Assembly: GCA_020848905.1 (NCBI GenBank) | Contig: JADLHG010000054.1 | Coordinates: 1-64,000 of the forward strand | Direction of reading: 5' to 3' | Source: Deltaproteobacteria bacterium | GTDB lineage: Bacteria > Myxococcota_A > Polyangia > GCA-2747355 > JADLHG01 | DNA length: 64,000 nucleotides | Shown: positions 5,763 to 53,269 of the stretch, piece by piece | Position numbering within the stretch: the stretch's first letter is position 1 | How the letters are laid out: the number at the start of each line of letters is the position of its first letter | Translations under genes and position numbers: made by a program | Notes under the pieces: generated by a model | What the model was told of the DNA's origin: nothing | Database searches by the model: none | What the model saw: only the letters and a program-made list of their open reading frames with translations

Positions 5763-5836
5763 GCACCCATAGCTCAGCTGGATAGAGCATCGGTCTACGG
5801 AACCGAGGGTCGGAGGTTCGAATCCTTCTGGGTGCG
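5763..5836 (+). tRNA. tRNA-Arg (anticodon ACG)
   Basis: 74-nt cloverleaf read by hand: acceptor GCACCCA/TGGGTGC, D-arm GCTC..GAGC, anticodon stem TCGGT/ACCGA with loop CTACGGA, T-arm GGAGG-TTCGAAT-CCTTC, discriminator G. CCA is not encoded. Confidence 0.9.
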
Positions 5837-5849
5837 CGAAGAAGTCGAA

Positions 5850-5881: not shown

Positions 5882-6286
5882 GCTAGGACCCCTCTGCTCC
5901 CCCGACTTTGACCAAATCTTGACCAAACTCGTCGCCGGTCTCGAGCTTGGCTACCGCCGCCCGAAGGTCGTCCTCCTCGACCACGTTGTAGCGCTCGAAG
6001 ACGGCCCGCGTCCGGTGGCCGGACGCGGCCCCAGAGTCCGCATCGAGACTCCACCGTCAGGGTGGTCTGCCACGAGACGGCGCCACAGGCACCGTGCCGG
6101 AGTGCCATACACGCGGGGCGGAGGATCGAGAACGGACCCAGCGGCCAAGCCCTTGCGCAACGCAAGACTTGCGTCGTTAGGGCTCGGTGCCACTCGCTAG
6201 GTCGGGTCGGCCTCTCTGACGGTTGTCGGAGTCCGACGGCTATGCTATCCGATGTTCATGGGGCGCGTCGTGGGGGGTGGTTGGGC

Positions 6287-9112
6287 ATGACGGTGGACCG
6301 ACGCGGGCCCAAGCCTCCGGGGCCGCCAGACTTTCAATCCCTCTTCGAATCCGCGCCCGCGTTGCTCCTCGCGCTTGCACCCGATCTGTCGATCGTGGCG
6401 GCGAGTGATGCGTACCTCGCAGCCACCATGACCCGAAGGGAAGAGATCCTGGGCCGCGGGATTTTCGAGGTTTTCCCGGACAACCCGGACGACGCCAGCG
6501 CCGATGGGACTAGCAACCTCCGCGCCTCTCTCGAGCGGGTGCTGGCAACGCGCGCTGCGGACACCATGGCCGTCCAGAAGTACGACGTACGCGGTCCGGA
6601 CGGGAGCTTTCAGGTCAAGTACTGGAGCCCGAAGAACGTCCCCGTGCGCTCGGCCAGCGGCGAGCTGCTCTACATCCTGCACCGCGTAGAGGACGTCACC
6701 GAGCTCGTCCGGGCGAGCGAGATGGGCGAAGAGCTGCGCGATCGCACGCGCGAGATGGAGCAGGAGGTGCTTATCCGCAGCCGCGAACTGGCCGCCGCGA
6801 ACCGGGACCTGCGGGACGCGAACGCGCGGCTCGGCGAATTGGACGCGGTCAAGACCGCATTCTTCAGCAACGTGAGTCACGAGTTCCGTACGCCCCTGAC
6901 GCTGATGATCGGGCCCCTTGAGGACGCGCTCAGCGCATCGGAACCAGCGCTCGCGGGCGAGGCGCTGCAGATGGTCTGGCGTAACGCCTTGCGGCTCATG
7001 CGCCTCGTCAACGCGCTGCTCGACTTCTCACGCCTCGAGGCCGGCCGGCTTCAGGCGTCTTTCGAGCCAACCGATCTAGCGGTGACGACCACGTATCTGG
7101 CGAGCGCCTTTCGGTCGGCGGTCGAGCGCGTGGGTCTCGTCCTGGATGTCGCCTGCGACCCTCTGCCAGAGCCGGTCTACGTCGACCGTGGACTCTGGGA
7201 GAAGGTGGTGCTCAACCTTCTCTCGAACGCCCTGAAGTTCACCTTTGAGGGGTCGATCCGGGTGGCGCTCCGCTGGTGCGGCGACCACGTCGAGCTGGAG
7301 GTGCGGGATACGGGGACAGGGATCCCGGGCGAAGAGCTGCCGCACGTCTTCGAGCGCTTTCATCGCATTCAGGGCGCGCGGGCGCGCACGCATGAAGGCT
7401 CAGGGATCGGGCTCGCGCTGGTACACGATCTGATTGCGCTCCACGGTGGCACGGTTCGTGTCGCCAGCACGGTCGGCTCGGGCACGACCTTCACGGTATC
7501 GCTCCGACGAGGCTCTGCGCACCTGCCACCCGGGCGCATCCGCGAGCAGGGTCGCGACGAAGACGCATCAGCCGGCGCCAGGCCCTTCGTGCAAGAGGCG
7601 CTCCGGTGGGCGGGAGGCGCCCCCGTCTCGTTCACGAAGCCCACCACCCTCAATCCAGTTTCCGTCCCGCCGGCAGAGAGAGCGCGCATCCTTGTCGTAG
7701 ACGATAACGCCGATCTCCGCGACTACATGCGGTCCCTTCTCGGCGAGCTCTATGTCGTCGAGACCGCTATCGATGGCCTCGAAGGGATGAAGGCGGCCGA
7801 GCTCCACCGCCCCGACCTCATCCTGAGCGACGTGATGATGCCTCGGATGGACGGGTTCGCCCTGCTCCGGGCCCTCCGCGCGCACGCCACCTTGCGGAGC
7901 GTTCCCGTGATCCTGCTCTCCGCCCGCGCGGGTGACGACACCAACATAGCCGGGCTCGAGGCGGGTGCAGACGACTATCTCGTCAAGCCCTTTTCCGGCC
8001 GCGAGCTTCTCGCGCGGGTGCGCACGCACGTCGAGCTCCTTCACCATCGTGAGACGCTCGAGCGCTTCTTCGCGCTGTCCCTCGACATGCTCTGCGTCGC
8101 GAGTGTCGATGGGTATTTCAAGCGAGTGAACCCGGCCTTCGACGTGCTCGGATATACCGCCGAGGAGCTTACGGCGAGGCCGTTCCTAGAGTTCGTCCAC
8201 CCGGAGGATCGGGCGGCGACGGTTGCGGAGATCGACAAGCTCGCCCACAAGATCCCGACGCTCCACTTCGAGAACCGCTACCGGGGCAAGGACGGGTTGT
8301 ATCGGTGGCTTGCGTGGACCTGCGCTCCAGATCGAACCGGGACGATATTCGCCGTGGCCCGCGATGTGACCGAGGAGAAGCAATCGCGCGAGGCGCTCGA
8401 GCACGCCAAGGAGGCTGCAGACCGGGCAAACCGTGAGCTGGACGCGTTTTGCCACTCCGTGGCACACGATCTGCGCGCACCGCTGCGGAGCCTCGATGGC
8501 TTTAGCCTGGCGCTACTCGAGGACTTCGCCGACCGGCTCGACGACGAGGGGAAGAAGCATCTGTCGTTCATTCGCGAAGCGGCACAGCAGATGGCGCAGC
8601 TCATCGACGACCTGCTCGCCCTCTCGCGAGTGACGCGCAGCGAGCTGGAACGTGAGCCGGTGGACCTCACCGACTTGGCGCGAGCCACCGTATCCCGGCT
8701 TCAGTCCCGACATGCCGGCCGGCGGGTGCACGTGACCATCCAAGAGGGCCTCGCCGGTCTTGGTGACCCACGACTGCTCACCCTTGTGTTCGACAACCTC
8801 CTCGGCAATGCGTGGAAGTTCACGAGCAAGCGCGATCACGCACGCATCGAGTTCGGCGCGCGCGCGCAAGACGGTTGTCCGGTCTATTTCGTTGCCGACA
8901 ACGGAGCCGGGTTCGACATGACGTACGCGAATAAGCTCTTCGGCGTATTCCAGCGGCTGCACGCGGCCTCGGAGTTCGAGGGGAATGGCGTAGGACTCGC
9001 AACGGTGCAGCGAATCATCGGTCGGCACGGCGGACGTGTCTGGGCGGAGGCTGAGGTCGAGCGAGGCGCGACCTTCTACTTCACTCTTCCGGAAGAGATC
9101 CGCTCGTCATGA
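6287..9112 (+). CDS. hybrid sensor histidine kinase with two kinase cores (PAS-HisKA-HATPase-REC-PAS-HisKA-HATPase)
   Basis: First H-box SHEFRTPL with G1/G2 boxes (DTGTGIP, GSGIGLAL). Receiver with DD..D..K pattern. Second PAS, second H-box AHDLRAPL and second ATPase (DNGAGF, GNGVGL). Start could alternatively be ATG 6242. Confidence 0.85.
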   Translation: MTVDRRGPKPPGPPDFQSLFESAPALLLALAPDLSIVAASDAYLAATMTRREEILGRGIFEVFPDNPDDASADGTSNLRASLERVLATRAADTMAVQKYDVRGPDGSFQVKYWSPKNVPVRSASGELLYILHRVEDVTELVRASEMGEELRDRTREMEQEVLIRSRELAAANRDLRDANARLGELDAVKTAFFSNVSHEFRTPLTLMIGPLEDALSASEPALAGEALQMVWRNALRLMRLVNALLDFSRLEAGRLQASFEPTDLAVTTTYLASAFRSAVERVGLVLDVACDPLPEPVYVDRGLWEKVVLNLLSNALKFTFEGSIRVALRWCGDHVELEVRDTGTGIPGEELPHVFERFHRIQGARARTHEGSGIGLALVHDLIALHGGTVRVASTVGSGTTFTVSLRRGSAHLPPGRIREQGRDEDASAGARPFVQEALRWAGGAPVSFTKPTTLNPVSVPPAERARILVVDDNADLRDYMRSLLGELYVVETAIDGLEGMKAAELHRPDLILSDVMMPRMDGFALLRALRAHATLRSVPVILLSARAGDDTNIAGLEAGADDYLVKPFSGRELLARVRTHVELLHHRETLERFFALSLDMLCVASVDGYFKRVNPAFDVLGYTAEELTARPFLEFVHPEDRAATVAEIDKLAHKIPTLHFENRYRGKDGLYRWLAWTCAPDRTGTIFAVARDVTEEKQSREALEHAKEAADRANRELDAFCHSVAHDLRAPLRSLDGFSLALLEDFADRLDDEGKKHLSFIREAAQQMAQLIDDLLALSRVTRSELEREPVDLTDLARATVSRLQSRHAGRRVHVTIQEGLAGLGDPRLLTLVFDNLLGNAWKFTSKRDHARIEFGARAQDGCPVYFVADNGAGFDMTYANKLFGVFQRLHAASEFEGNGVGLATVQRIIGRHGGRVWAEAEVERGATFYFTLPEEIRSS

Positions 9113-9561
9113 CAACCGACAAGGTGATCTTGCTCGTGGAAGACAGCCCACGGGACGAAGCGTTGATCCTTCGGGCGCTGCGCAAGGGGAACATCCTCAA
9201 CCCCATCGTCGTAGCCCGCGACGGTGTCGAGGCGCTCGACTACTGCCTCGGCCGGGGGGCCTACAGCGAGCATCCTCCGCCCGTTCTGCCGCAGGTTGTG
9301 CTGCTCGACCTGAAACTTCCGAAGGTCGACGGACTCGAGGTGTTGAGGACCCTGCGCGCTACCGCGGCGACCAGGCTTCTTCCGGTCGTGGTGCTCACCT
9401 CCTCCGTCGAGGACCAGGATCTGGTCCAGAGTTACAGCCTCGGAGCGAATAGCTATGTCCGCAAGCCTGTAGATTTCGCGCAGTTCATCGATGCCGTTCG
9501 GCAGCTCGGGCTCTACTGGCTCGTCCTCAACCAGAACACACCCACCCTGAGGAGTCCGTAG
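9109..9561 (+). CDS. single-domain response regulator (receiver only)
   Basis: 150-aa REC domain (LLVEDSPRDE ... VLLDLKLP ... K). ATGA start/stop overlap with the upstream kinase. Confidence 0.85.
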   Translation: MTTDKVILLVEDSPRDEALILRALRKGNILNPIVVARDGVEALDYCLGRGAYSEHPPPVLPQVVLLDLKLPKVDGLEVLRTLRATAATRLLPVVVLTSSVEDQDLVQSYSLGANSYVRKPVDFAQFIDAVRQLGLYWLVLNQNTPTLRSP

Positions 9562-9564
9562 TCG

Positions 9565-12500
9565 ATGGGGAAGCCGCTCCGAGCCTTGATCGTCGAGGAT
9601 GTAGAGAAGGATGCGTTGCTCCTCGTCCGGGAACTCAAGCGCGGGGGCTACGATGTCACGTTCGAGCGTGTGGACACCGCCGACGCAATGGGGGACGCTC
9701 TGGCGCGCCGCACCTGGGATGTCGTGCTTTCGGATTACTCGATGCCCACCTTCAGCGCCCCGCAGGCTCTGGCGGTCGTCAAGGCGCACTCGCTCGACCT
9801 GCCCTTCATAATCGTTTCTGGCACGGTGAATGAAGACATCGCCGTGGCGGCCATCCATGCTGGAGCGCATGACTTCATGGCCAAGAACAAGCTCCAGCGC
9901 CTCATTCCGGCCATCGAACGGGAGCGGCGTAATGCCGCCATGCGAGCCGAGCAGGCCACCATGCAACAGCAGCTCCTCCAGTCCCAGAGGATGGAGGCCA
10001 TGGGTCAGCTCGCGGGTGGGATTGCCCACGACTTCAACAACATCCTCGCCGTGATCTTGTCGTACGCCACCTTCGTGCGGGACGCACTGCCCGAGGGGGA
10101 CGAGCGACGTGCGGATGTGGTCGAGGTGCTGAAGGGCGCCGACCGCGCGGCGGGACTCACGCGCCAGCTCCTCGCCTTCTGCCGGCAGCAGCCGGCGGCC
10201 GCGCGGCCCACGGACCTGAACGAGAGTCTCACGCAGCTTCACAAGCTCCTTGTCCGGACCCTTGGCGACGACATCGCACTGAGCGTGCTCCCTTCTGCGC
10301 GACCCGCCGTCGTGCGCATCGATCCGGTGCAATTCGATCAGATCGTCCTGAACCTGGCGGTCAACGCGCGAGACGCGATGCCTGGAGGCGGAGAGCTGCG
10401 CATCGTCGTGCGTAATGACCAGGACGAGGAGGCGAGGCCGGTTGTGCGTCTCAGCGTTTCGGACACGGGCACCGGGATGGACGAGGCGACGCAGCGACGC
10501 ATTTTCGAGCCCTTCTTCACGACCAAGGAGCGCGGCAAGGGAACAGGCCTTGGGCTCGCCACGTGCTTCGCGATCGTCGAGAAGGTGGGAGGGCGGATAC
10601 GCGTCGAGAGTGCACCGGGACGAGGTAGCCAGTTCACCGTGGATCTGCCTCTCTGCGACGAGCCAGCGCATGACCAGGGGCGGGACTGGGACATCCCACT
10701 ACCCGCGAGTGGGGAGGCGGTGCTCGTAGTGGAAGACGAGCCGTCACTTAGGCGCGCGACGGCGCGCGTCCTCGAGCGCGCAGGCTACCGGGTGCAGGTG
10801 GCCTCCGACAGCTTGGAGGCGATGCGGCGGATCGATGCCCTCGGGGATCGTTTGCGCGTCGTCGTCACCGATGTGGTGATGCCGGGGGCGAGCGGCGTCG
10901 ACGTGGCCGCATACGTGGCGCGCACGGCGCCGCATTGCCGCGTCATCTTGACCTCGGGATACTTGACGGACGCGGTACATCGGCGCCAGCCCGAGGAGCT
11001 GCCCATGCTCTGGAAGCCCGTCCCACCGCGTGACCTCCTGAGGGCCGTCGCTCAGGCAATCTCCGAAGGCACGGCATCCGAACGAACGCGGTCCACGGAG
11101 TCACCGGCGAGCCGCCCTGGCGAGCTCGTTCTCGTGATCGACTGCGACGCTCCGTCACGGCGCGCGATTGTGAGCGCTCTCAACACCGCAGGGTACCGTG
11201 CGCTCGAGGCAGAGGCTGTTGCTACTGCTCGGGCCCTGGTCGAGGGCGGCGCGGAGCCAATGTGGATTCTGTGCGAGCAGGGGCTCCTGCATGGCGACGG
11301 GGAGGCGCAGTTTCTCCGGTGGATCGAGGTAGACCGGCCAAACCTCATCGAGCGCGTACTGATCCTGTCCGACCGAGCGACGAACGACGGGTGCTCGCAC
11401 GGGGTCCGATGGCGAGAGGATCTTGTGATCTCCAAGCCCGTGGACGTGAGCGAGTTGCTTTGGCGGTTGGTGCGGACTTCGGCCGACGCGCCGTCGAGGA
11501 CGGAGATAGGCGTCCCATTCGGGAGCTCCGGTGACCTGGCGCAGCAAGCGCGCGCGGGTGGAACGCTACGGCGCAGCGATGCAACGGGAGACAACGAGGG
11601 GGGTCGGGGACACCTGCGCGAGTCCGTTCTCGTGGTGGAGGACGACGAGTCTCTTGCTGGCGCTGTATCTCGTCTCCTCGGTGGCGCGGGTTACGAAGTT
11701 CTCGTCGCCGGGTTGCTGGCCGATGCGCGTAGCGCGCTGGCGGCCAAAGAGTTCGACGTCCTAGTCGTTGATCTTGGGCTGCCGGACGGTGGCGGCCTCG
11801 ACCTGGTTCGTGAGTTGCGCGGCGGGCGGTCGGACGTCCCCATCGTGCTGATGACGGCATCGCCGTCGGTGGATTCGGCTGCTGAGGCAATCCGGTGGCG
11901 GGTCAGCGAGTACCTCCCCAAACCCTTTCCGCCGGACGATCTGCTTCGTGTGGTACGCACGACCGTGGACGGCGGACGCATGGCGCGCGTGCGGAACAAG
12001 CTTCTTGCGGCACGCTTTGGCGGCAACGAGTTCGTGGCGGACCTGCGCGGCACCGAGCAGGCTTTCTTGCGAGCCCTACCGAAGATCTGGATCGCCTACC
12101 AGCCCATCGTACGAGGAGGTGATGGGTCCCTCTTCGGCTACGAGGCGCTCCTCCGCTGCCACGAACCGGATCTGGCCTCTCCCTTGCGGCTGTTTGCAGC
12201 GGCCGAGGTGCTGGGACGGGTCCACGAGGTCGGGCGTGCCGTCCGTGCCGTCGTGGCCTCGACGATGCTCGAACACCGCGAACGCCTGGAGGCCATTTTT
12301 GTCAACGTGCATCCGTCGGAGCTGCGGGCGGACGTCCTGGCTGACAGCGCCGAGGCCCTCCTGCCCCTGGCACGCCGTGTGGTGCTCGAGGTGACCGAGC
12401 GAGCGTCGCTCGACCGGGGCGCGAAGCTCGACGAGGAGCTCGCCCACATCCGAGGTCGCGGTTACCGCCTGGCGGTGGACGACCTCGGCGAGGGCTACGC

Positions 12501-12798
12501 GGGCCTTTCCAGCGTGGCTACCCTCCGGCCGGACATGGTGAAGATCGACATGTCGCTCGTGCGAGACGTCCATCGCGCGGCTCTCAAGCGGGACATTATC
12601 GCTGGGCTCGTCGACACCGCGCGGCGGGCAGGGATCGTGGTGGTCGCCGAGGGCGTCGAGACCGTGGACGAGCGCGACACCCTCGTGACGCTCGGCTGTG
12701 ACCTCCTACAGGGGTATCTGTTCGCCAAGCCGGGGCCAGCATTTCCCGTTCCACGTACGAACTTCAGATCGGATCCTGCCGCGGCATCTGAAGGCTGA
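9565..12798 (+). CDS. multidomain REC-HisKA-HATPase-REC-pseudoREC-REC-EAL signalling protein (c-di-GMP phosphodiesterase output)
   Basis: N-terminal REC. H-box AHDFNN and ATPase boxes (DTGTGMD, GTGLGLA). Three further receiver-like domains, the middle one lacking the phospho-acceptor Asp. C-terminal EAL domain with QPIV, ExLxR, EVTE, DDLGEGYAG, KIDMS, EGVET and QGYLF motifs. GAGGAG Shine-Dalgarno upstream. Starts 4 nt after the response-regulator stop. Confidence 0.85.
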   Translation: MGKPLRALIVEDVEKDALLLVRELKRGGYDVTFERVDTADAMGDALARRTWDVVLSDYSMPTFSAPQALAVVKAHSLDLPFIIVSGTVNEDIAVAAIHAGAHDFMAKNKLQRLIPAIERERRNAAMRAEQATMQQQLLQSQRMEAMGQLAGGIAHDFNNILAVILSYATFVRDALPEGDERRADVVEVLKGADRAAGLTRQLLAFCRQQPAAARPTDLNESLTQLHKLLVRTLGDDIALSVLPSARPAVVRIDPVQFDQIVLNLAVNARDAMPGGGELRIVVRNDQDEEARPVVRLSVSDTGTGMDEATQRRIFEPFFTTKERGKGTGLGLATCFAIVEKVGGRIRVESAPGRGSQFTVDLPLCDEPAHDQGRDWDIPLPASGEAVLVVEDEPSLRRATARVLERAGYRVQVASDSLEAMRRIDALGDRLRVVVTDVVMPGASGVDVAAYVARTAPHCRVILTSGYLTDAVHRRQPEELPMLWKPVPPRDLLRAVAQAISEGTASERTRSTESPASRPGELVLVIDCDAPSRRAIVSALNTAGYRALEAEAVATARALVEGGAEPMWILCEQGLLHGDGEAQFLRWIEVDRPNLIERVLILSDRATNDGCSHGVRWREDLVISKPVDVSELLWRLVRTSADAPSRTEIGVPFGSSGDLAQQARAGGTLRRSDATGDNEGGRGHLRESVLVVEDDESLAGAVSRLLGGAGYEVLVAGLLADARSALAAKEFDVLVVDLGLPDGGGLDLVRELRGGRSDVPIVLMTASPSVDSAAEAIRWRVSEYLPKPFPPDDLLRVVRTTVDGGRMARVRNKLLAARFGGNEFVADLRGTEQAFLRALPKIWIAYQPIVRGGDGSLFGYEALLRCHEPDLASPLRLFAAAEVLGRVHEVGRAVRAVVASTMLEHRERLEAIFVNVHPSELRADVLADSAEALLPLARRVVLEVTERASLDRGAKLDEELAHIRGRGYRLAVDDLGEGYAGLSSVATLRPDMVKIDMSLVRDVHRAALKRDIIAGLVDTARRAGIVVVAEGVETVDERDTLVTLGCDLLQGYLFAKPGPAFPVPRTNFRSDPAAASEG

Positions 12799-13072
12799 GA
12801 GGCGCCGAAGCCGAGCGGCGTCCGTGAGGCTCCCGGAGGCGGATCTACTAGGTCATCCAGAGCCGAACTACCGGAAGCGCGCCCATTGCGTCGCCGCCGG
12901 TGTGGCCGTCAGGGTGAACGACGTAGGCTAGAATGACGTGGTGACATCGCGCCCGGCGCGAGGCGACCGGAGCAGGTCGCGAGGTCGCGCCGCAATAGGC
13001 GCTCCAACCCGGTCGGCGTTCTAGGTCCGGAGGAAGGGGAGGCTGGACTGGAGAGGGATCGAGGGACGGCGC

Positions 13073-16039
13073 CTACTTCTTCTCGCGCGGATAGGGCGGC
13101 TTGTACGGCCTGGAGATGGCGTGCACCTTGTCCGCCGCGAACTGCCGATCGACGCCGTGGCAGGAGGCGCAGGTCTCCTTCTCGTCACCGCTGTAGGGCT
13201 CCGCCGGCGTCGGATCGAAGGTGTTGAGCATGCCGTGCAAGATCGCGCTATCCCGGTCGTGGCAGGACAGGCACGCGAGGCGGCTCGGACGCTGCTTCCA
13301 GTAGTCGGCCTTGGCGTGGCAGGTGGTGCAGTTGCGGATGTCCTGAGGGAAGATGCGCGCGGCGAAGTTGACCGTCGGGTTGTAGGCGGGGGCCACCTCC
13401 AGCGGCTTGTCGAGGTAGTGTCCGTAGTGGACGCCGTGGACGCGGCGCGAGAGGGGCGCTGCGCCGAACCCGTTGTTCGAGTCGGAGTTCTTGGCCCACC
13501 CGGACCTGCCCTTGAGCTGCCGATCGTAGTCGTGGCAGGAGCGACACAAATCCGTGTCGAACTTCACGGCCCAGTAGTTCTCGTGGATCGCGGTGTTTGC
13601 GTGGCAGGAGGAGCAGTTCGTCGCGTTGTACTCATCGACGGCCTTTGTCCCCACCTGGAAGTTCAGCTTCGCCACACCGCCGCAGACGTGGCCGTCGGGG
13701 CAGGTGATGCCCGAGGGGACCATCTCCACGAAGGCGGTGTACGTGCCGGGGGCCAATCCCTTGACGTCATCGAGCTGGTACTCGACGAATCCGTTGGCAC
13801 CGGGGGTGCGCTTGACCTTGGGATCGTCGTCGCGCGGGTCGGCGGGGACGTTGAGATGGTTCGCCGGATAGGAGTCGGTCTCCACCGGCACCGCGATGCC
13901 CGCGGGAAACTCGAGCGCCGACCCCACGGTGCTGGCGAGGACCTCGACCGAGGAGGTCGCTCCTCTCGAGTTGCTCTTGATGGTCAGCGTCGGAGCGGCG
14001 CTGGACCCGGAGGCCGACGCCGTCGCCACGGCCTTGAACGTGGCGTTGGCGTTGAGCCAGGCCGCAGCCTCCGCCGCGGTCGCGGCCGCGAGGTTGGCAA
14101 AGGTCCCGGAGGAGATGGGGATGATGATGGCGGCCCCGCCGTCGATCTTTACCCGCAGGTCTGTCGTAGTGGAGAGACTCCAGGGGCCAGCCTTCTTGCA
14201 GGTGACCGCCGCGCGAATCATCGCCTCGCCTCGAGCCGCCGTGGTCAAGACCGGCATCGCCTGCTGCGAGCGTGGACCGCTGACGAAGAGGTTGAAGCGG
14301 AGCCAGGCGGGCGGCTTGATGGCGGTCGGGTCCGCGATCACTCCCTTGCTGTCCTTGAGCACGATCTTCACCGTCGGAGCCTCGCCCCCCACGTAATGCG
14401 TGCCGTTCGCCGGCGGCGTCATGCTGAGCTCGGCGGTAGGCTGGACGAGCGGCTCGATCTCGTGTGACTTCGCCACGGGCACGGTGCCGTTCGGGCCGTG
14501 GCAGTTCGCGCACGTGCCGTCGGTCTGCTTCCCGCCCAGGTGCACCGCGAGCTGGCACATCCCTGTCGTCGCGTTGCACGTGGATTCCTTGTTGAAGTCC
14601 GCGACGCAATCCGTGCTCTCCTTGCACTTGCCGGCCTTGGGACGTCCCTGTACGCGCGGTGGCGAGAGCACGCCGCTGGCTGCATCGAGGTTGTCGTGGC
14701 AGCTCGCGCAGGCCTGCGTCGAGGGCTTGGTCTTCCACGAGTCGTCGAGGTGGCACTTGGTGCAGTTGCGAGGATTGGCCGGAAAGCGGACGCCCGGGTT
14801 AGAGCCCACGCCGCCCTTGGCCTGGGAGGTGTAATCCCGGAAGTCACCCGTCACGGGATCGATGTTGAAGAGGCTGCTGAGGCCCCTCGTGGGCTCGCAC
14901 ACGTGGGCGGTTCCGGGTGCCCCGCAGCCCCCGCCCATGTGGACGCCGTGTACGCGCCGCACGATCGCGTCGGAGACTCGGTTTGTCGACTGGCAGGGGC
15001 TCTCACCCTGCTTGCCGCAGTAGGCGGCGTAGCCGTCCTGGTTGTGGCAGTTCTTGCAAGTGCGGACAGGATCGGAGTCGATGGCGTAGTTTCCGACGGC
15101 AGCGCCCTCGCGATCGATGTGGTGGAGGTAGGTCATGCCGCTGAGGGCGCCCTTGTGGCAATCGGCGCAGTTGCCGACGATCTCCTTCTCCACCGCGGCG
15201 GCGCCGAGCTGGAGCTCCTGAACCGGGAAGGCCTGGTCGATGGGAAAGTCCTTCGAGATCGCCCAGAAGCTCACCAGGTACGTCCCCGGCTCCTCGGTCG
15301 TGACGGGCTCGAGAGTGTAGGTCAGGACGTTCCCCTTCACCGCGAGGTTGGTCTTCACCGGCTTCTCGCAGGTGGTGGTGCCGCCCGCGGTGGCGCAGGT
15401 CCAGTCGGTTCCGCCCTTGGCGTCGGTCGCGGTCGAGGTGCACGTGTGCTTCGCCGCCGAAACGCTGCACTTCCAGGAATACGCGCCGCCCGGGGTGGGG
15501 AGTGCGGTGAGATCGACGAAGTGATGCTCGGTCGCGGTGCGCGCGGCGCTCACGTTGAGCAGCTTGGACGCCGTCTTCGCCTTCAGCGCGCTGTTCGGAC
15601 CCACCATCATGAGGCGGGCCTGGCTCAGGCCCTCGCGAGGAATCGGAGCGCCGGCCTCGTCGGTGACCGTGATGGTGATGACCGGCCTGTCACCGGGGAC
15701 GAAGTGCGTGCTGTTCGAGGGCTTGGAGACCTCGAGCTTGACCCGCAGCCCGGGGCTGAATCCGGCATTCATGCCATTGGTGCCGTTCGTCCCTGGCGCG
15801 CCGGCGGCGCCGGGGTCGCCCTTGGTCCCGGCGGCGCCGGGGTCACCCTTGGTCCCAGCGGCGCCGGGGTCGCCCTTTTCTCCGGACGTACCGGGCTCGC
15901 CCTTGGCGCCGGGCTCCCCCTTGCTACCGTCGCAGCTCCCGAGGAGACCGATCAACCCGGCCAGCAACACGACCCGGGCGGGCCCGGCCGCCGACCGCTT
16001 GTAGAACGCCAACAGTCCATCGGCCAAAGCTCTCGTCAT
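13073..16039 (-). CDS. lipoprotein decaheme c-type cytochrome with N-terminal collagen-like Gly-X-Y repeat
   Basis: Signal peptide with lipobox LLGSC. About 15 consecutive G-X-Y triplets (GEPGAKGEPGTSGEKGDPGAAGTKGDPGAAG...). Ten CXXCH heme-binding motifs: CADCH, CKNCH, CTKCH, CASCH, CANCH, CSSCH, CRSCH, CTTCH, CLSCH, CASCH. GGAGAG upstream of ATG 16039. Confidence 0.8.
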   Translation of the reverse strand: MTRALADGLLAFYKRSAAGPARVVLLAGLIGLLGSCDGSKGEPGAKGEPGTSGEKGDPGAAGTKGDPGAAGTKGDPGAAGAPGTNGTNGMNAGFSPGLRVKLEVSKPSNSTHFVPGDRPVITITVTDEAGAPIPREGLSQARLMMVGPNSALKAKTASKLLNVSAARTATEHHFVDLTALPTPGGAYSWKCSVSAAKHTCTSTATDAKGGTDWTCATAGGTTTCEKPVKTNLAVKGNVLTYTLEPVTTEEPGTYLVSFWAISKDFPIDQAFPVQELQLGAAAVEKEIVGNCADCHKGALSGMTYLHHIDREGAAVGNYAIDSDPVRTCKNCHNQDGYAAYCGKQGESPCQSTNRVSDAIVRRVHGVHMGGGCGAPGTAHVCEPTRGLSSLFNIDPVTGDFRDYTSQAKGGVGSNPGVRFPANPRNCTKCHLDDSWKTKPSTQACASCHDNLDAASGVLSPPRVQGRPKAGKCKESTDCVADFNKESTCNATTGMCQLAVHLGGKQTDGTCANCHGPNGTVPVAKSHEIEPLVQPTAELSMTPPANGTHYVGGEAPTVKIVLKDSKGVIADPTAIKPPAWLRFNLFVSGPRSQQAMPVLTTAARGEAMIRAAVTCKKAGPWSLSTTTDLRVKIDGGAAIIIPISSGTFANLAAATAAEAAAWLNANATFKAVATASASGSSAAPTLTIKSNSRGATSSVEVLASTVGSALEFPAGIAVPVETDSYPANHLNVPADPRDDDPKVKRTPGANGFVEYQLDDVKGLAPGTYTAFVEMVPSGITCPDGHVCGGVAKLNFQVGTKAVDEYNATNCSSCHANTAIHENYWAVKFDTDLCRSCHDYDRQLKGRSGWAKNSDSNNGFGAAPLSRRVHGVHYGHYLDKPLEVAPAYNPTVNFAARIFPQDIRNCTTCHAKADYWKQRPSRLACLSCHDRDSAILHGMLNTFDPTPAEPYSGDEKETCASCHGVDRQFAADKVHAISRPYKPPYPREKK
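15790..15930 (-). repeat. near-perfect tandem nucleotide repeats encoding the collagen-like G-X-Y tract
   Basis: Unit gcggcgccggggtc(a/g)cccttggtccc occurs three times in tandem on the plus strand. Confidence 0.6.
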
Positions 16040-16087
16040 CGTCAACTCTCCGGGGATAAGGGATGGGGTGGTGCGCGCCCGGCCTAA

Positions 16088-16103
16088 GCAGCTTGCGTGC
16101 CAA
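16088..16103 (-). promoter_or_regulatory. candidate sigma54 (-24/-12) promoter for the decaheme cytochrome gene
   Basis: Minus-strand TTGGCACGCAAGCTGC has GG and GC at the consensus spacing of TGGCACG-N4-TTGCW. It lies about 50 nt upstream of ATG 16039 and next to a sigma54 activator gene. Confidence 0.4.
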
Positions 16104-16271
16104 TGCCGCAGCCTGCGATATCGCTGAGGAACGAGCAGCCGCGGGGCCGAGATGTCGCACGGCACCGGCGTAGCCGGAGTAGGCGCGCCAAAAATATTAT
16201 TCTTTATCGCGGCGTTAACTTGCAGCCGAAATGTCGGCCGCCTCCGGGCGAAAGGTCGGCCCCCTGGCGGC

Positions 16272-17870
16272 CTACCGGGTCCGCTTTAACTTGCTCTGCA
16301 GGGTGCTGCGCGGCACGCCGAGGATCTTCGCGGCGCGATGCAAGTTGCCGCCGGCCTTCTCCTGCGCCCAGTCGAGCACCGCCTGCTGGAACTGCTCCGT
16401 GAGCTGCGGTAGCTCGACAGAGGCCGCCTGGTCGAGGTGGAGTGCAAACGGGAGGGGTTGCTCGTCGGGGGTCTCCCCCCGCAAGTACTCGGGGAGGAAG
16501 GTCGGCGTCACGTCCGGCCCCGGGCAAAGGACGAGGGCCGACTCCATGGCGCGGCGCAGCTCCCTCACGTTTCCAGGCCAGGGATGACGCTGGAGGAGGT
16601 CTGCGGCACCCACCGAGAGGCGCTTCTTCGGCTGCCCCTCGGTGGTCGCCAACAGCGCGAGGAAGTGCGTGGCCAGCAGCACGATGTCCTCGCCGCGCTC
16701 GCGTAGCGGCGGCATATGGAGCCTGAGCCCGTTGAGCCGGTAATACAGGTCGTCGCGGAACCGCTGAGTCCTCACGTGGCCCAGCGATAGATCCGCCTTG
16801 GTGGTCGCCAGCACCCGGACATCCACGGCGATCTCGTCGGTGCCGCCCACCCGAGCGAAGCGGCCCTCCTGAAGCACGCGCAACAGCTTCGCTTGCAGCT
16901 CGATCGGCAAGTCGTCGATGTCGTCGAGGAGCAGCGTTCCTCCGTGGGCTCGTTCGAAGCATCCACGGCGGGACTGCGTGGCGCCGGTGAAGGCGCCTTT
17001 CTCGTGCCCGAGCAACTCGCTCTCGGCGAGCTCTCTCGGGATGGCGCCGCACGCGACCACGACGAAGGGTTCCTGTCGCCGCGGTCCCTGAAGATGCAGG
17101 GCACGAGCCGCCATCTCCTTGCCCGTTCCGGTCTCGCCGACGATGAGGACTGGCGCGGACGCCTTGGCGAAGATGGCGAGGCGCTCATGGACCTTTTGCA
17201 TGGCGGCCGACCTGCCGATCAGCCCCGAGCCACCACCCTCCGCGCTACCCACCAGCGCCTTGAGCGAGGAGAGCTCGCGCCGTGCCGTCGATAGCTCGCG
17301 CAACTGTGCGAGCCGCACCTCGAGCTCCATCGTCCGTTCCGCCACCTTCCGCTCGAGACCGTCTTTGAGGGCTCGCAGCTCCACCTCGAGGCGTTTGCGC
17401 GCAGTGATGTCCCGGACGAAGTGAACGAAGACTGGACGTCCTTCTGCCGTGACGAGTTCGACGGGGTAGACCAGAGACTCCACCCAGCTCCCGGTTCGCG
17501 CGTCGAAGAACTCTCGCTCGGCAGGCCCGCCTTCGGCCACGGACGCCTCGAGGGGGCAGCCCGGAAAGGGCTCGTTGAGCCCGTGCACCTCCCTGGGGCA
17601 ATAGCAGCCGAGCAGCTCCCGGGAGCTGCGCTTGAGGTCTCTCTGCATGGCGCGGTTGCTGGCGAGCACCCTGTGGGCGGAGTCCAGGACCAGCACGTAG
17701 AAGGGCAACGCGTCCAGCAGCGGCTGCAGCAACTCGAGCGCCGCCGGCGGTAGCGGGAGCCCGGGACTCGGGTGTGCGCCGTCGTCGCCTGCTGCCGGCG
17801 CGCGCTGATCAGGTTTAGTCTGCACCGGGTTCGTGACGTTGAGTCTCGCATGAGGGGCCTCGTCCCGCAA
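16272..17870 (-). CDS. sigma54-dependent transcriptional activator (PAS - AAA+ sigma54-interaction - Fis-type HTH)
   Basis: Walker A GETGTGKE, GAFTGA motif, and C-terminal HTH (ILGVPRSTLQSKLK). Track ORF starts with TTG at 17870 and has no nearby in-frame ATG. Confidence 0.85.
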   Translation of the reverse strand: MRDEAPHARLNVTNPVQTKPDQRAPAAGDDGAHPSPGLPLPPAALELLQPLLDALPFYVLVLDSAHRVLASNRAMQRDLKRSSRELLGCYCPREVHGLNEPFPGCPLEASVAEGGPAEREFFDARTGSWVESLVYPVELVTAEGRPVFVHFVRDITARKRLEVELRALKDGLERKVAERTMELEVRLAQLRELSTARRELSSLKALVGSAEGGGSGLIGRSAAMQKVHERLAIFAKASAPVLIVGETGTGKEMAARALHLQGPRRQEPFVVVACGAIPRELAESELLGHEKGAFTGATQSRRGCFERAHGGTLLLDDIDDLPIELQAKLLRVLQEGRFARVGGTDEIAVDVRVLATTKADLSLGHVRTQRFRDDLYYRLNGLRLHMPPLRERGEDIVLLATHFLALLATTEGQPKKRLSVGAADLLQRHPWPGNVRELRRAMESALVLCPGPDVTPTFLPEYLRGETPDEQPLPFALHLDQAASVELPQLTEQFQQAVLDWAQEKAGGNLHRAAKILGVPRSTLQSKLKRTR

Positions 17871-18879
17871 TCGCGGCCCTGGCGCGCGTCGGGGCGGTCG
17901 ACAGCTTCTTCACTGGATCCTCCCGAGAGAGGTGCGGCCGTTCCTCGGGCCTCAGGTCGAGCTTGGCGAGCCGGCCCTCGCAGAAGGGGGACCGTGCCCC
18001 TGTCGTGGACCGCGCGCTGGAGGTCGTAGGCGCCGATGTAGTTGCTTGCCGAAGACCGCGCGCGGGTTCGTGTCGGTCAGCTCGACGGGCGTCCGGGTTA
18101 CGCCTACAGAGGACGCGTTCGGCAAGGCGTCCCGCAGGCGGCGAGCTCGTGAACCGAACGGCTCAAGTCCACGTCACAGGCCGCGAGTCGCGGGCTTGTT
18201 CGATGCCGAGCCGCGTGTCATGCTCCGGGCCTACAGGTGCTGGTGCTCACTCGCCTACCCAGAAGTCGTTCTCCGCGACGGTGTCACGAGGACTCCTGCG
18301 CGAGCCCCTTGCTCTTGGCGGGTTTGCTCGCCGCGCTGCAGGCCGGACTGGTGCCCGAGTCATTGCTGTCCGAGCTTCGCCCTGGACGGGGAGGCGCTGG
18401 TGCCGGGTCATCCTCGCCTGGCGACGCCCCGCAGCAGCTCGCGGGCGTGCTGCCTGGCCATGGTCTCTCCGCTCGAGTGACGAACTCCGTCGGCGTTCGA
18501 CAGCACTCCGCCGCAGCGGCGTGGGCCGTCCCGCATGCGGCCATCCATACGACGCTCAGGCATGCGGCGGCCTGTCTGCACTCGACCATCCACGTGGCGC
18601 GGAGGGGTGCCCCTCCGCGACCGAGAGTCGCCCATTCCGCAAGCACCCCTCGCGGCCCTCCCTGCCAGTCCTAGCCGCTGAAGCGAGGTCAGTGTCGGTT
18701 CGCTCGGCTTACTGACAATCGCCGACGGAGTAGTCGGCGCTACGTCTCCACAACGACGCTGACGCCGCTGCCGCACCGGACCGCGCGGCGCTTGAAGGAA
18801 CCGCCTCGTTCTTTCTTTGTTTCGTCTCGAAGCGGTGCTGTGCAAATGTGAGGCAGAGAACCCTCAAGGGAGTACCCAA

Positions 18880-19035
18880 ATGGCGATCGGGTTGCAGGCA
18901 CTAATCACCACCCTCTTGCTTCTCAAGCGAACGTGCCCAAAGTGCGGGCGGGAGCAGGTGGTGTCGGTAAGTAGGCGAAAGGCAACGATACCGTGCAGGG
19001 CCTGCGGCGGTCCCGTCCCGCCACCCAAGCGCTGA
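18880..19035 (+). CDS. small zinc-ribbon protein (CPKC...CRAC), speculative
   Basis: 51-aa ORF with two CxxC pairs and AAGGGAG 8 nt upstream. Sits in a lower-GC stretch with no other convincing ORF. Confidence 0.3.
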   Translation: MAIGLQALITTLLLLKRTCPKCGREQVVSVSRRKATIPCRACGGPVPPPKR

Positions 19036-19490
19036 GGCGGGAGGCGGGATTGCCAGAAGCATCCGACGCAGCGACCTCGAATCAGGGCGGTCGGCCCTCG
19101 CCACCCCCTTCGGACGAGAAGACACCGGGGCGAGCGTTCGGCGGGACCGGCCCCGGTCAGAGCACCGACCGGCGCGACGCCAACGGACCACGACGCCGAT
19201 GGCTGACGCTTCTCGTCTGGACGAGCACCCTTGCGTTCAGCGGCGCCGTCGCGTTCTCGCACCACTGGCTCGCCGACCTCATCTTGGCGCTGCTTCCCCT
19301 CGCTCTCATGTTGGTCCTCAGCGTCTTCGGTGTCGTCACGTTGTTGCGCGGGAGGTAGCGATGGGCCTTCTCGATCTCATGGTCCCCGGGCGAGACGACG
19401 TCACATCGCGCGCGTTGTCGGGTGAGACAGGGCCGCGCGACTGGGGCGACCAGGTCAGGATCTGAGCTCGGTCCCAGCAGGAGAGGGCGC

Positions 19491-21179
19491 ATGCACAACC
19501 TGCAGATCTTGATGACCTTCGCTGTCGGGCTCGCTGCGGCCCTCATCCTCGCCTATGTCGCGCACAGGCTGAAGCTCTCGCCCATCGTGGGCTATCTGCT
19601 CGCTGGCATCGCCGTGGGCCCCTTCACGCCGGGGTTCGTGGCCGATCGGCTCGCCACGGAGCAATTCGCCGAGATCGGCGTCATTCTGCTCTTGTTCGGG
19701 ACCGGGCTGCGTTTTCATCTGCGCGAGCTGATCGCGGTCTGGCGCGTGGCGGTGCCAGGGGCCTTGCTTCAGAGCGCCGCCTCGAGCATCGCCCTCGCGC
19801 TGCTCCTGTTGGCGCTGGGATGGAGCTGGAGCGCCGGGCTGCTGCTCGGGATGGCGATCTCGGTCGCCAGCACCGTCGTCATGGTTGTGGTGCTGGCCGA
19901 CCGTGGAGACCTCGACGGCCCCATCGGTCACCTCGCGGCAGGCTGGACCGTGGTTGAAGACCTCATCACGGTCGCGCTGCTGCTCGTGCTGCCCATCATC
20001 GTCTTGCGCGAGAGTGGAGGACAGGGTGTCTGGGTACCGCTCGGGCTGACGGCACTCAAAGTCATGGCACTGGTCGCGGCGGTCGTCGTGCTCGGCCGGT
20101 GGATCATCCCGTGGGCCCTGGAGCGCGTCGCACGGACCCGCTCGCGCGAGCTCTTCACGCTCGCCGTGCTCGTCGTCGCGGTCGGCATCGCGGTGGGCGC
20201 TGCACGAGTGTTCGGGGTCTCGGTCACGCTCGGCGCCTTCATGGCCGGACTGGCCGTTGGACGCTCCGAGTTCGCCGCCCGAGCGGCTGGCGACGCGGTA
20301 CCCATGCGCGACGCCTTTGCCGTCCTCTTCTTCGTCTCGGTCGGCATGCTCTGCGATCCACGCGCCCTCGTCGAGGCACCGCTGCTCACTTTGGCGGTGC
20401 TGGCAGTCGTGGTCGGGGGCAAGCCGCTCGCCGCGCTGGCAACGATGCGGCTCCTGAGACGGCCCATGACGATCGCCGTTCCGGTCGCAGCGGCGCTCGC
20501 CCAAGTCGGTGAGTTCAGCTTTATCCTCTGCTCCTTGGCCAGGGAGCTGGGATTGCTCGGCGGCGCCGGCTGGAACGCCATGGTGGCTGCGTCCATCATC
20601 TCCATCGCCGTCAATCCGTCCTTGTACCGTTGGGCCCGTCGGCTGGCGGGCAGAGCCGGAAACCTGATCGGCGACGACGTGCGACGAGGAGTCGTCGATC
20701 CGCGGAGCTGCATCCTGGTGGGCTACGGCCCGGTCGGCAGCACGGTCCATCGGCTCCTCGCTGAACGGGGCGCCGCCGTGACCGTCATCGAGCTCAACCT
20801 CGACACCGTCCGCCGGCTGAGAGAACAGGGGGTCGCCGCAATCTACGGCGACGTGCTTCGGCCGGGGGTCCTCGAAGCTGCGGGCATCGCCACCGCTGGA
20901 AGCTTGATCCTGAGCGCGGACGTCGAAGACGCTGAGGAGGTGATTCGTCAGACACGCAGCGCAAACCCCGGCCTGCGGGTGCTGGTGCGCTGTACCCACC
21001 TCCGTGACGTCGCGTCTCTACGACACGCTGGAGCGTCGGTTGTCGCTGCCGGGGAAGCGGAGGTCGCGGTGGCCTTGGCCGAGGCGGTGTCCGTCGTCAG
21101 TGGAACAGGCGAGGGTTGGCAGCGAGAGGACATCAGACGCCGCCTCTACGACGAGGGACCGCCCCTCGGTGGAGCATAG
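19491..21179 (+). CDS. Kef-type K+/H+ antiporter (CPA2 membrane domain plus C-terminal RCK/TrkA-N domain)
   Basis: About 12 TM helices, then Rossmann motif GYGPVGSTV. GGAGAG before ATG 19491. The track ORF begins upstream at 19422. Confidence 0.85.
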   Translation: MHNLQILMTFAVGLAAALILAYVAHRLKLSPIVGYLLAGIAVGPFTPGFVADRLATEQFAEIGVILLLFGTGLRFHLRELIAVWRVAVPGALLQSAASSIALALLLLALGWSWSAGLLLGMAISVASTVVMVVVLADRGDLDGPIGHLAAGWTVVEDLITVALLLVLPIIVLRESGGQGVWVPLGLTALKVMALVAAVVVLGRWIIPWALERVARTRSRELFTLAVLVVAVGIAVGAARVFGVSVTLGAFMAGLAVGRSEFAARAAGDAVPMRDAFAVLFFVSVGMLCDPRALVEAPLLTLAVLAVVVGGKPLAALATMRLLRRPMTIAVPVAAALAQVGEFSFILCSLARELGLLGGAGWNAMVAASIISIAVNPSLYRWARRLAGRAGNLIGDDVRRGVVDPRSCILVGYGPVGSTVHRLLAERGAAVTVIELNLDTVRRLREQGVAAIYGDVLRPGVLEAAGIATAGSLILSADVEDAEEVIRQTRSANPGLRVLVRCTHLRDVASLRHAGASVVAAGEAEVAVALAEAVSVVSGTGEGWQREDIRRRLYDEGPPLGGA

Positions 21180-53256: not shown

Positions 53257-53269
53257 GAGAGACGACGCC

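Follow-up and report, generated by a model that had tools for sequence, protein, structure and literature searches.

The window analysed here, a 64-kb stretch of DNA, carries on its minus strand a gene for a sigma-54 enhancer-binding protein, immediately followed by a gene whose 988-amino-acid product is predicted to be a lipoprotein with ten haem-binding motifs. A -24/-12 promoter element sits between the two genes. The features are as follows, in the direction of transcription.

16272-17870, minus strand: sigma-54 enhancer-binding protein, 532 aa (Pfam Sigma54_activat, 212 bits; AAA_lid_14, HTH_8, PAS_4)
about 17391-17717, minus strand: PAS_4 sensor
about 16719-17222, minus strand: AAA+ domain with GAFTGA
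about 16281-16397, minus strand: HTH_8
16212-16223, 16283-16294, and 16340-16351 (the last inverted), minus strand: GCAAGTT(A/G)N(A/C)GC repeats, candidate activator sites (pattern match)
16190-16201, minus strand: AT-rich palindrome
16087-16102, minus strand: sigma-54-type -24/-12 promoter element TGGCACGCAAGCTGCT (TGGCAC-N5-CTGC), 47 nt before the cytochrome ATG
16051-16046, minus strand: ribosome-binding site GGAGAG, 6 nt 5' of the ATG (direct sequence reading)
13073-16039, minus strand: decahaem cytochrome ORF, 988 aa, ATG start at 16039
15932-16039, minus strand: signal peptide and lipobox (residues 1-36, L-L-G-S-C; pattern match), Cys36 being the predicted lipid anchor
15767-15928, minus strand: collagen-like stalk, 18 uninterrupted Gly-X-Y triplets (residues 38-91; Pfam Collagen match)
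15185-15751, minus strand: domain I, beta-sandwich/barrel (residues ~97-285), behind the junction GMNAGFSPG, with a lineage-specific four-Cys insert
14450-15184, minus strand: domain II, first pentahaem module (residues ~286-530; CXXCH at 291, 328, 426, 444, and 510)
13640-14449, minus strand: domain III, enlarged beta domain with a helical insert (residues ~531-800)
13073-13639, minus strand: domain IV, second pentahaem module (residues ~801-988; CXXCH at 809, 832, 904, 923, and 957) and stop codon

The cytochrome gene encodes an MtrC/OmcA-type head

The open reading frame bears out the original prediction of a 988-aa product with a lipoprotein signal, since the lipobox is preceded by a charged n-region and then a hydrophobic core, and the predicted mature N terminus is C-D-G-S-K. 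In the alignment of homologues, the column of the anchor residue holds Cys in 30 of 71 sequences. The original prediction had also allowed that the Gly-X-Y run might be a sequencing or assembly artefact. A 27-nt tandem repeat (3.9 copies) overlaps the run and makes up part of it, and the copy number of such repeats can be mis-assembled, so that either the run or the gene model could in principle reflect an assembly error or a frameshift. Against this, an identical 988-aa protein is present on a separately named ENA metagenome contig, GC3 is 0.88 over the entire reading frame, and diverged homologues carry Gly-X-Y runs by the dozen, at the same position in 31 of the 120 best homologues. We reject an artefact as very improbable.

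All ten predicted CXXCH motifs are present; instead of being spread evenly over about 900 residues, as had been proposed, they fall into two groups of five, one in each pentahaem module. The ten motifs are invariant in the 71 aligned sequences, as are ten further His residues (172, 307, 364, 367, 526, 819, 868, 871, 935, and 973), which are candidate distal ligands. Compared with multihaem families, the protein matched PF22113 at 85.3 bits (cut-off, 30; best stretch, residues 807 to 973). The score for TIGR03507 was 155, below the cut-off of 209.3 (best stretch, residues 807 to 974), a result that we count against our main account. By sequence, the family profile finds MtrF and MtrC among PDB entries, and Foldseek aligned the protein with MtrC over its full length (E value, 1e-15). 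The head has the four-domain fold of MtrC, with beta domain I, pentahaem module II, beta domain III, and pentahaem module IV in that order, and would transfer electrons. These data support the assignment of the predicted gene product to the lipoprotein-type decahaem proteins of the MtrC/OmcA kind.

In the respiration of minerals and electrodes by bacteria, MtrC/OmcA proteins are the textbook terminal components, and work on them has been almost confined to Shewanella. The protein described here shares with Shewanella MtrC, OmcA, MtrF, and UndA the lipobox, the ten CXXCH motifs in two pentahaem modules that alternate with two beta domains, the bis-His pattern, and the match to PF22113. It differs from them in having only 12 to 22% identity in structural alignments, about 300 extra residues in enlarged domains I to III, and no mtrA or mtrB neighbours. 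In addition, and this counts against our main account, it has neither the CX8C pair of MtrC-type domain III (Cys614, Cys780, and Cys786 are not conserved in the family alignment) nor the S/T-P-S/T motif of the MtrC type.

A collagen-like segment separates the predicted lipid anchor from the head

The original prediction placed about 15 uninterrupted Gly-X-Y triplets right after the lipid-anchor Cys; the run is indeed there, and the count is 18. As had been suggested, we compared it with collagen profiles; its score for Pfam Collagen (PF01391) was 37.5 bits, exceeding the cut-off of 27.2. It contains five KGE/KGD motifs and has 11% Pro and 20% charged residues, compared with about 12% Pro and 30% charged residues in Scl2 and about 15% charged residues in animal collagens (PMC10765305). 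These findings support its being a genuine collagen-repeat segment. The NCBIfam models SclA, SclB, and Lcl gave 31, 26, and 19 bits over the repeat, compared with cut-offs of 400, 325, and 500, so it does not belong to those families. A search of the protein collection with the stalk by itself returned only short generic collagen-repeat proteins of 82 to 153 aa, which say nothing about other heads that lipid-anchored stalks may carry.

To place the run in context, we used a family of 282 clusters at 50% identity (E ≤ 1e-30) from Myxococcota, Chloroflexota, and other phyla. About one-third of this uncharacterised decahaem family has 6 to 30 Gly-X-Y triplets right behind the lipid-anchor Cys, and 13 of the 21 long runs begin at Cys+2. 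Other members have Cys-bracketed repeats, a 20-residue linker, or a small beta domain at the same position, and a conserved PGLNAGETP-type junction comes after the spacer; the spacer position is modular across the family. Many members have only 5 to 8 triplets, and Shewanella oneidensis MtrC itself starts with a short Gly-X-Y-like tether of five (C-G-GSD-GNN-GND-GSD-GGE), in contrast to the 18 triplets of collagen composition found here. Because other family members have different spacers at this position, we interpret the stalk as, most probably, a tether that has been enlarged. The original prediction held the architecture to be non-standard, which is true in that no solved Shewanella protein has so long a run; it is not a one-off, however, given its recurrence in the family. 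We found no description of a collagen-stalked multihaem architecture in the literature searched (full text, subscription journals lying outside the search).

The residues of the run bear on whether three identical chains could form a collagen triple helix, nucleated at their lipid anchors, that would hold three heads with 30 haems on a rigid rod of about 15 nm with a hinge at the conserved NAG break. In the long-stalk members, the Gly register is unbroken over about 90% of the linker, and in the 21 long runs basic residues prefer position Y (35, compared with 10 in X) and acidic residues prefer X (73, compared with 54 in Y), with a Fisher P value of 5e-5 that is approximate since the runs are related. 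KGE/KGD-type pairs outnumber reversed pairs 20 to 4. Such pairs make triple helices more stable, and lipid tails do the same for collagen-model peptides. The Pfam match and a composition lying between those of Scl2 and animal collagens also speak for a triple helix. Other observations do not: there is no recognisable trimerisation domain next to the run, with neither a coiled coil nor a C1q-like domain seen by Pfam or in AF2 secondary structure, and runs of 5 to 8 triplets, as in many members and MtrC, are too short for a stable helix. Part of the register could have come from the 27-nt tandem duplication, and to our knowledge MtrC-type heads are monomers in solved structures. Scl-type collagens need a trimerisation domain (PMC10765305). 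We regard the triple helix as a tentative possibility, at less than even odds. Its fullest form, a lipid-nucleated homotrimer (or possibly a heterotrimer in Chloroflexota, where two stalked paralogues lie in tandem) bearing a bouquet of three heads on the 15-nm rod, seems rather unlikely.

The same run could instead be a disordered lipoprotein linker that serves sorting or reach through peptidoglycan, its collagen-like look being a by-product of repeat expansion. The monomer prediction for residues 34 to 86 has an AF2 pLDDT below 50, the spacer is interchangeable across the family, and the run is of tandem-repeat origin. A disordered N-terminal linker is also reported for about half of the outer-membrane lipoproteins of Escherichia coli (bioRxiv 10.1101/2021.01.05.425367). 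A merely disordered linker would not, however, be expected to show the X/Y charge asymmetry or to keep a strict three-residue register in runs that have diverged, are not repetitive, and extend to as many as 30 triplets, and low pLDDT is the usual monomer prediction for any collagen segment. We consider this explanation doubtful.

Surroundings of the locus and placement of the protein

Within the 64-kb window we found no gene for an electron donor, a porin, an MtrA-like protein, or a further cytochrome, which counts against our main account, and no other CXXCH protein; there is no porin among the annotated neighbours and there are no type II secretion genes nearby. In Chloroflexota and Polyangiales, stalked decahaem genes lie beside NrfC/NrfD-like quinol modules and genes for other multihaem proteins, and the Verrucomicrobiota relatives adjoin a porin-like protein and a 7-haem protein; clustering of the neighbourhoods of 80 loci revealed no partner common to all. 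A PPIC-type prolyl isomerase gene lies directly downstream in seven to eight Polyangiaceae loci and was considered as a collagen-folding helper. We dismissed it, as it also lies beside members without long runs; it is absent from the 64-kb window.

The c-di-GMP-linked phosphorelay operon that had been predicted to converge on the 3' end of the cytochrome gene is a histidine-kinase/receiver/EAL operon on the plus strand (6062-12798), whose end is separated by 274 nt from the stop codon of the cytochrome gene. We discarded the idea that this phosphorelay is linked to the cytochrome: the operon is convergent, the activator has no receiver domain, and nothing links the two. A third tRNA, a tRNA-Arg(CCT) called by ARAGORN at 12488-12579, is inside the kinase gene, lacks Rfam support, and is probably false. 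For the 1.3-kb gap, Rfam gave just a sub-threshold match to the Pseudomonas sRNA P4.

The mature N terminus bears on where the protein ends up. With Asp at position +2, no porin or type II secretion genes nearby, and Chloroflexota relatives beside membrane NrfCD-like modules, the protein might stay in the envelope, anchored in the inner membrane, with stalk and head (about 15 plus 9 nm) bridging the periplasm to carry electrons there instead of at the cell surface. Asp+2 is the inner-membrane retention signal of E. coli (PMC3222651). In Myxococcus xanthus the corresponding signal is Lys+2, not Asp, and the outer-membrane lipoproteins of that species have no conserved signal (PMC3222651). The +2 residue also varies among stalked homologues (D, T, S, E, and A). 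Retention in the envelope is improbable in our judgement. As far as we know, the MtrC/OmcA-type proteins characterised to date are found on the cell surface.

A PAS-type activator and a sigma-54-type promoter element precede the cytochrome gene

The activator upstream of the cytochrome gene, on the same strand, has the PAS input that the original prediction gave it and no receiver domain (Pfam). It is the sole GAFTGA protein in the 64-kb window, and an identical protein, named sigma-54-interacting regulator, is present in an NCBI 'Deltaproteobacteria bacterium' MAG. It resembles NtrC-family sigma-54 activators with PAS domains in its AAA+ domain with GAFTGA, its HTH_8 domain, and a -24/-12 target immediately downstream, while scoring under every NCBIfam equivalog cut-off. 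All of its near homologues have a receiver domain where it has PAS, and its PAS type is otherwise known from kinases encoded beside decahaem genes. At locus L008, for example, a two-component pair whose kinase carries this PAS type is encoded immediately upstream of a decahaem homologue, and the two PAS domains are 38% identical. The PAS region of the activator contains the motif GCYCPREVHG..PGCPLE, whose Cys and His residues hint at a redox or metal signal.

The -24/-12 element lies where it had been predicted, close to 50 nt before the ATG. Matches to TGGCAC-N5-YTGCW number 6 in the window, compared with 0.08 expected by chance. Scans of the region between the activator and cytochrome genes found neither a sigma-70-type promoter nor a convincing terminator. 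The GCAAGTT-type repeats have only three matches in 64 kb, all 110 to 250 nt upstream of the -24/-12 element; they are a lead and not a demonstration, because the pattern was defined after the copies had been seen. Upstream of homologues, we found 18 sigma-54-like elements in 66 kb, compared with 3.4 expected, an approximately five-fold enrichment, and at loci L010, L013, and L039 an adjacent GAFTGA activator and a sigma-54 element are both present. The closest homologue, at locus L002 (53% identity), counts against this pattern, having no adjacent activator and no canonical -24/-12 element. We found no orthologue of the PAS-activator fusion, the matches being receiver-type NtrC proteins that align with its AAA+ and HTH part, so the pairing of this activator with this promoter is argued from position only. 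The element, the only GAFTGA activator of the window, the enrichment upstream of homologues, and the three loci with both activator and element give good support to sigma-54 control, in line with the conditional expression originally proposed; the cytochrome gene is probably switched on through sigma-54.

Discussion

We read the locus as a module of two genes, for a PAS-sensing sigma-54 activator and its probable target, an MtrC/OmcA-type decahaem lipoprotein with a stalk that would act as a spacer, and we give this account as a whole a probability of roughly 0.6. Once its signal is present, the activator would bind upstream, with the three GCAAGTT repeats as candidate sites, and open sigma-54 RNA polymerase at TGGCAC-N5-CTGC. 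Judging from its sequence, the product would leave the cytoplasm through Sec, receive its lipid on Cys36, and acquire ten bis-His haems. The 54-residue Gly-X-Y segment would be an enlarged version of the short Gly-rich tether of Shewanella MtrC, either as an extended monomeric tether or as a homotrimeric triple helix; with it the head could rest or swing as far as about 15 nm away from the anchoring membrane, perhaps across wall, periplasm, or surface polymer layers. There the head may relay electrons between a partner that is not encoded next to it and an acceptor or donor that is external or insoluble. We count against this account that a rigid stalk would place the head at a distance from donors bound to the membrane. 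Because a stalk would insulate the haem chain from those donors, the wire held away from the membrane that was originally envisaged needs a partner.

Stalks of this type are known from Streptococcus Scl1 and Scl2, Bacillus BclA, and Legionella Lcl, in which an uninterrupted, charge-rich Gly-X-Y repeat without hydroxyproline and of variable repeat number links a cell anchor to a globular head. Scl2 has 79 triplets, so the run described here is shorter. It also differs in having an N-terminal lipid anchor instead of LPXTG or exosporium attachment, no V-domain or C1q-like trimerisation domain, and a redox protein, not an adhesin, as its head. A second likeness is to PgcA of Geobacter sulfurreducens, a trihaem cytochrome of extracellular electron transfer and predicted lipoprotein with long proline-rich tandem repeats that are thought to tether or space its haem domains (PMC5732950). 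In PgcA, the repeats are PTx units between three single-haem domains, not Gly-X-Y triplets before a decahaem head; its fold is unrelated, and it is cleaved and released.

The design recurs in many uncultured bacteria, and the locus points to a large uncharacterised branch of MtrC/OmcA proteins in soil, groundwater, and sediment lineages (Myxococcota, Chloroflexota, Verrucomicrobiota, Nitrospirota, and Planctomycetota), in which the tether from anchor to head is a variable, sometimes very long, collagen-like module. Recurrent sigma-54 control and a shared PAS sensor offer a handle on when such proteins are made. If the triple helix is genuine, the stalk would bring together bacterial collagens and extracellular electron transfer, fields without contact so far, and would provide a natural scaffold on which to display redox proteins at set distances. 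If the trimer is real as well, it would mark the first redox head on a collagen-type protein and a third structural way of moving electrons through the cell envelope or past it, beside porin-cytochrome complexes and polymerised cytochrome filaments. Should the stalk determine how far the haem head stands from the anchor, this would offer a simple account of how a cell with a thick wall, a wide periplasm, or a slime layer brings a cytochrome up against solids.

Decahaem cytochrome with an MtrC/OmcA-type head

The original prediction described a lipoprotein decahaem cytochrome with a collagen-like stalk, a neighboring sigma-54 activator, a promoter element, and a convergent operon, and we found the observation to be correct as a whole, with the lipobox, Gly-X-Y run, ten CXXCH sites, activator, promoter element, and operon all present.

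Features of the cytochrome locus
13073-16039, minus strand: decahaem cytochrome ORF, 988 aa from the ATG, with GGAGAG ahead of the ATG
Cytochrome N terminus, minus strand: lipobox L-L-G-S-C closing the signal peptide, Cys36 (sequence pattern)
Residues 38-91, minus strand: Gly-X-Y run of 18 uninterrupted triplets (sequence)
Residues 291-514 and 809-961, minus strand: ten CXXCH in two groups of five (sequence)
16102-16087, minus strand: sigma-54-type -24/-12 element TGGCACGCAAGCTGCT, 47 nt before the cytochrome ATG
16272-17870, minus strand: activator, PAS_4, sigma-54 AAA+ (GAFTGA), and HTH_8 (domain matches)
5763-5837: tRNA-Arg(ACG) gene, directly before a stretch of lower G+C

The Gly-X-Y run is uninterrupted and near the anchor Cys, as described, but comprises 18 triplets rather than about 15, and the CXXCH sites, taken to be spread along the protein, are clustered rather than evenly spaced. 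The stalk repeat, which is partly a 27-nt tandem repeat, passes the Pfam Collagen profile (37.5 bits; threshold, 27.2). An identical 988-aa protein is encoded on a separately named ENA contig.

The head had been set beside multihaem cytochromes of the OmcA/MtrC type, and it does match the Pfam profile for MtrC/MtrF domains II/IV, the pentahaem modules (85 bits); its NCBIfam score for the OmcA/MtrC decahaem family, 155 bits, does not reach the cut-off of 209. When compared with solved structures, a profile of 71 members of the decahaem family matched MtrF and MtrC, and the AF2 model of the cytochrome (pLDDT 80, pTM 0.76) gave a whole-length Foldseek match to MtrC (E 1e-15). Ten CXXCH and ten other His residues are invariant throughout the alignment of these 71 members, the pattern expected for ten bis-His haems. 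This alignment shows no conservation of the CX8C pair found in domain III of the Shewanella proteins, and the S/T-P-S/T motif is absent from the cytochrome. At the level of the predicted fold, the head groups with MtrC and OmcA and would work like them, yet it fails one curated threshold and does not have two Shewanella-specific features. It is a separate, uncharacterised branch of MtrC/OmcA-type proteins.

Distribution and nature of the stalk

A homologue search returned 239 relatives; ten CXXCH are present in all of the best 120, and 31 of those 120 have at least six N-terminal Gly-X-Y triplets, mostly a few residues from the lipobox Cys. Automatic annotation has given one JGI record the name [quoted passage not shown] Species-representative genomes yielded at least 567 relatives when scanned, in Myxococcota, Verrucomicrobiota, Chloroflexota, Nitrospirota, Planctomycetota, and Gemmatimonadaceae. 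With a limit of E<=1e-30, an exhaustive profile search counted 282 clusters at 50% identity. The best genome match in the scan was only 41-45% identical, so the source organism lies outside the species-representative set. Among 80 loci listed, Anaeromyxobacter sp. PSR-1 was the only cultured source noticed, with a run of nine triplets in its homologue (L078), and about one-third of the multihaem ORFs had Gly-X-Y runs, mainly in Myxococcota and Chloroflexota and not in Verrucomicrobiota.

The tether joining the anchor Cys to domain I, a beta domain, is modular across the family. It consists of 14-30 Gly-X-Y triplets filling about 90% of the linker, of a short Gly-X-Y run with one or two Cys-bracketed "CTVTDNGDGTKTITCDDGTSVTV" repeats, of a linker about 20 residues long, or, in Verrucomicrobiota, of a small beta domain without a lipobox. 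In long and composite tethers, the Gly register is ended by a junction motif, PGLNAGETP (GMNAGFSPG in the cytochrome). The N terminus of Shewanella oneidensis MtrC, C-G-GSD-GNN-GND-GSD-GGE (checked against PDB 7o7g), already has five triplets. Since the type member has this short run, the stalk of the cytochrome is, from sequence, best seen as an expanded version of an existing tether.

The tethers of many Myxococcota homologues contain a Cys-bracketed motif of about 25 residues (C-T-V-T-D-N-G-D-G-T-K-T-I-T-C-D-D-G-T-S-V-T-V), in one or two copies between short Gly-X-Y runs (homologue proteins P0009, P0018, P0019, P0022, P0023, P0029, and P0077 and locus L078); no family was matched to it in this analysis.

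Whether a Gly-X-Y tether forms a true collagen triple helix, and thus a trimer, or acts as a monomer was judged from residue positions and composition. Across the 399 triplets of 21 long runs, basic residues occur 35 times in Y and 10 times in X, and acidic residues 73 times in X and 54 times in Y (p = 5e-5), while KGE/KGD-type pairs outnumber reversed pairs 20 to 4; five such pairs lie within the 18 triplets of the cytochrome. With 11% Pro and 20% charged residues, the stalk is also intermediate between Scl2 and animal collagens (composition values from PMC10765305). These properties favor the triple helix, to which we give roughly one chance in three. Against it, no trimerisation domain is recognisable, a stable helix is out of reach for members with short runs, and the monomer AF2 prediction has low confidence over the stalk. 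In addition, MtrC-type heads are, to our knowledge, monomers. The rise of a collagen helix is about 0.29 nm per residue, so the 54-residue stalk would be about 15 nm long if triple-helical.

The stalk is similar to bacterial collagens of the Scl/Bcl/Lcl type, yet it lies outside those adhesin families. A functional precedent for proline-rich repeats on a lipoprotein cytochrome is Geobacter PgcA (PMC5732950). In the literature searched, which omits most subscription journals, we found no report of a multihaem cytochrome with a collagen-like segment.

Sigma-54 control

A sigma-54 activator had been placed immediately upstream of the cytochrome and a -24/-12 element about 50 nt before its ATG, and both placements held. 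No other protein in the window carries GAFTGA besides the activator (PAS_4, GAFTGA AAA+, and HTH_8), whose sequence is identical to that of a protein from an NCBI "Deltaproteobacteria bacterium" MAG; the -24/-12 pattern occurs 6 times in the window, where 0.08 would be expected. Three GCAAGTT-type repeats, a pattern set after the copies were seen, lie 110-250 nt upstream of the element, with no other copies in the window.

Windows around the gene start in family loci contain about five times as many sigma-54-like elements as expected (18 versus 3.4). Over all loci, 5 of the 11 strictest matches are upstream of the decahaem gene, four of them within about 100 nt of the gene start; the site in L063 is further off and less certain. 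Homologue loci L010, L013, and L039 have an adjacent GAFTGA activator together with a sigma-54 element, and the gene order of L039 is the same as that of the window. The nearest homologue locus, L002, has no activator and no canonical sigma-54 element. Activator input domains vary, with PAS in the window and a receiver or a probable FHA-type N terminus in other loci. The activator PAS (GCYCPREVHG..PGCPLE, with Cys89, Cys91, His96, and Cys105) is 38% identical to that of a HisKA_3 kinase in a Polyangiaceae MAG, where this kinase and a LuxR-type regulator are directly upstream of a decahaem homologue; related PAS domains on both proteins point to one sensor type wired to the gene via two outputs.

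For each of the five other exact sigma-54-type elements in the window (28134, 30915, 36355 on the minus strand, 37995, and 42991), a gene for a secreted or membrane protein has a plausible ATG about 15-70 nt downstream; these proteins are a C39-like peptidase lipoprotein, a MacB-like ABC permease, and unknown secreted proteins. One of the elements precedes the first of two tandem genes (38061-38843 and 38903-39685) for closely similar 260-aa secreted proteins, which had no Pfam match.

Genomic context and electron transfer

As predicted, a c-di-GMP-linked phosphorelay operon (PAS-kinase, receiver, and hybrid kinase-4xREC-EAL genes) converges on the 3' end of the cytochrome gene. ARAGORN placed a tRNA-Arg(CCT) at 12488-12579, within the hybrid kinase/EAL coding region; Rfam did not call it, and it is probably a false positive. 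Positions 6000-21000 have a G+C content of 0.64-0.69, compared to 0.69-0.75 over most of the remainder, and contain the kinase/EAL operon (GC3 0.77-0.79), cytochrome, activator, and a Kef-type antiporter; this stretch may be an acquired island.

No coding signal is seen in any frame over about 1.3 kb ahead of the activator gene (17871-19150); so long an intergenic region is unusual in bacteria, and the only Rfam match, to Pseudomonas sRNA P4 (19148-19215), fell below threshold. Shortly before the antiporter gene (19422-21179) is a small ORF (18993-19358) with a C-terminal half resembling a pair of transmembrane helices; another gene caller gives only a 34-aa ORF in this region. Elsewhere, a 2-oxoacid:ferredoxin oxidoreductase-like gene followed by a POR gamma/ATP-grasp/CoA-binding/succinyl-CoA-ligase-like fusion of the ADP-forming acyl-CoA synthetase type (51673-56248) hints at anaerobic or facultative metabolism.

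The cytochrome has Asp at position +2, which retains lipoproteins in the inner membrane in Escherichia coli; in Myxococcus xanthus the inner-membrane signal is Lys+2 and outer-membrane lipoproteins have no conserved signal (PMC3222651); the membrane location of the cytochrome cannot be read from its sequence.

In Polyangiaceae-type loci (L044, L050, L052, L070, L071, L073, and L080; also L063 and L082), a PPIC-type peptidyl-prolyl isomerase gene is directly downstream of the decahaem gene. The isomerase, which could be a folding helper, accompanies decahaems with or without long Gly-X-Y runs and is absent from the window.

Apart from this cytochrome, the 64-kb window encodes no c-type cytochrome, and porin and secretion genes are likewise absent from it. 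In Chloroflexota (L014, L029, L033, L035, L047, and L048), two different stalked decahaems of about 900 and 750 aa, with 12-24 triplets apiece, occur in tandem, which raises the question of mixed assemblies; these pairs are preceded by PAS-kinase/LuxR pairs and NrfC/NrfD-like genes. A Polyangiales locus has consecutive genes for a decahaem, a PPIase, a decahaem, a 3-haem protein, NrfC, NrfD, and a 10-haem protein, and Verrucomicrobiota relatives adjoin a porin-like protein and a 7-haem protein. These NrfCD-like, porin-like, and multihaem neighbors of its relatives support a probable role for the family in carrying electrons across the envelope or beyond it.
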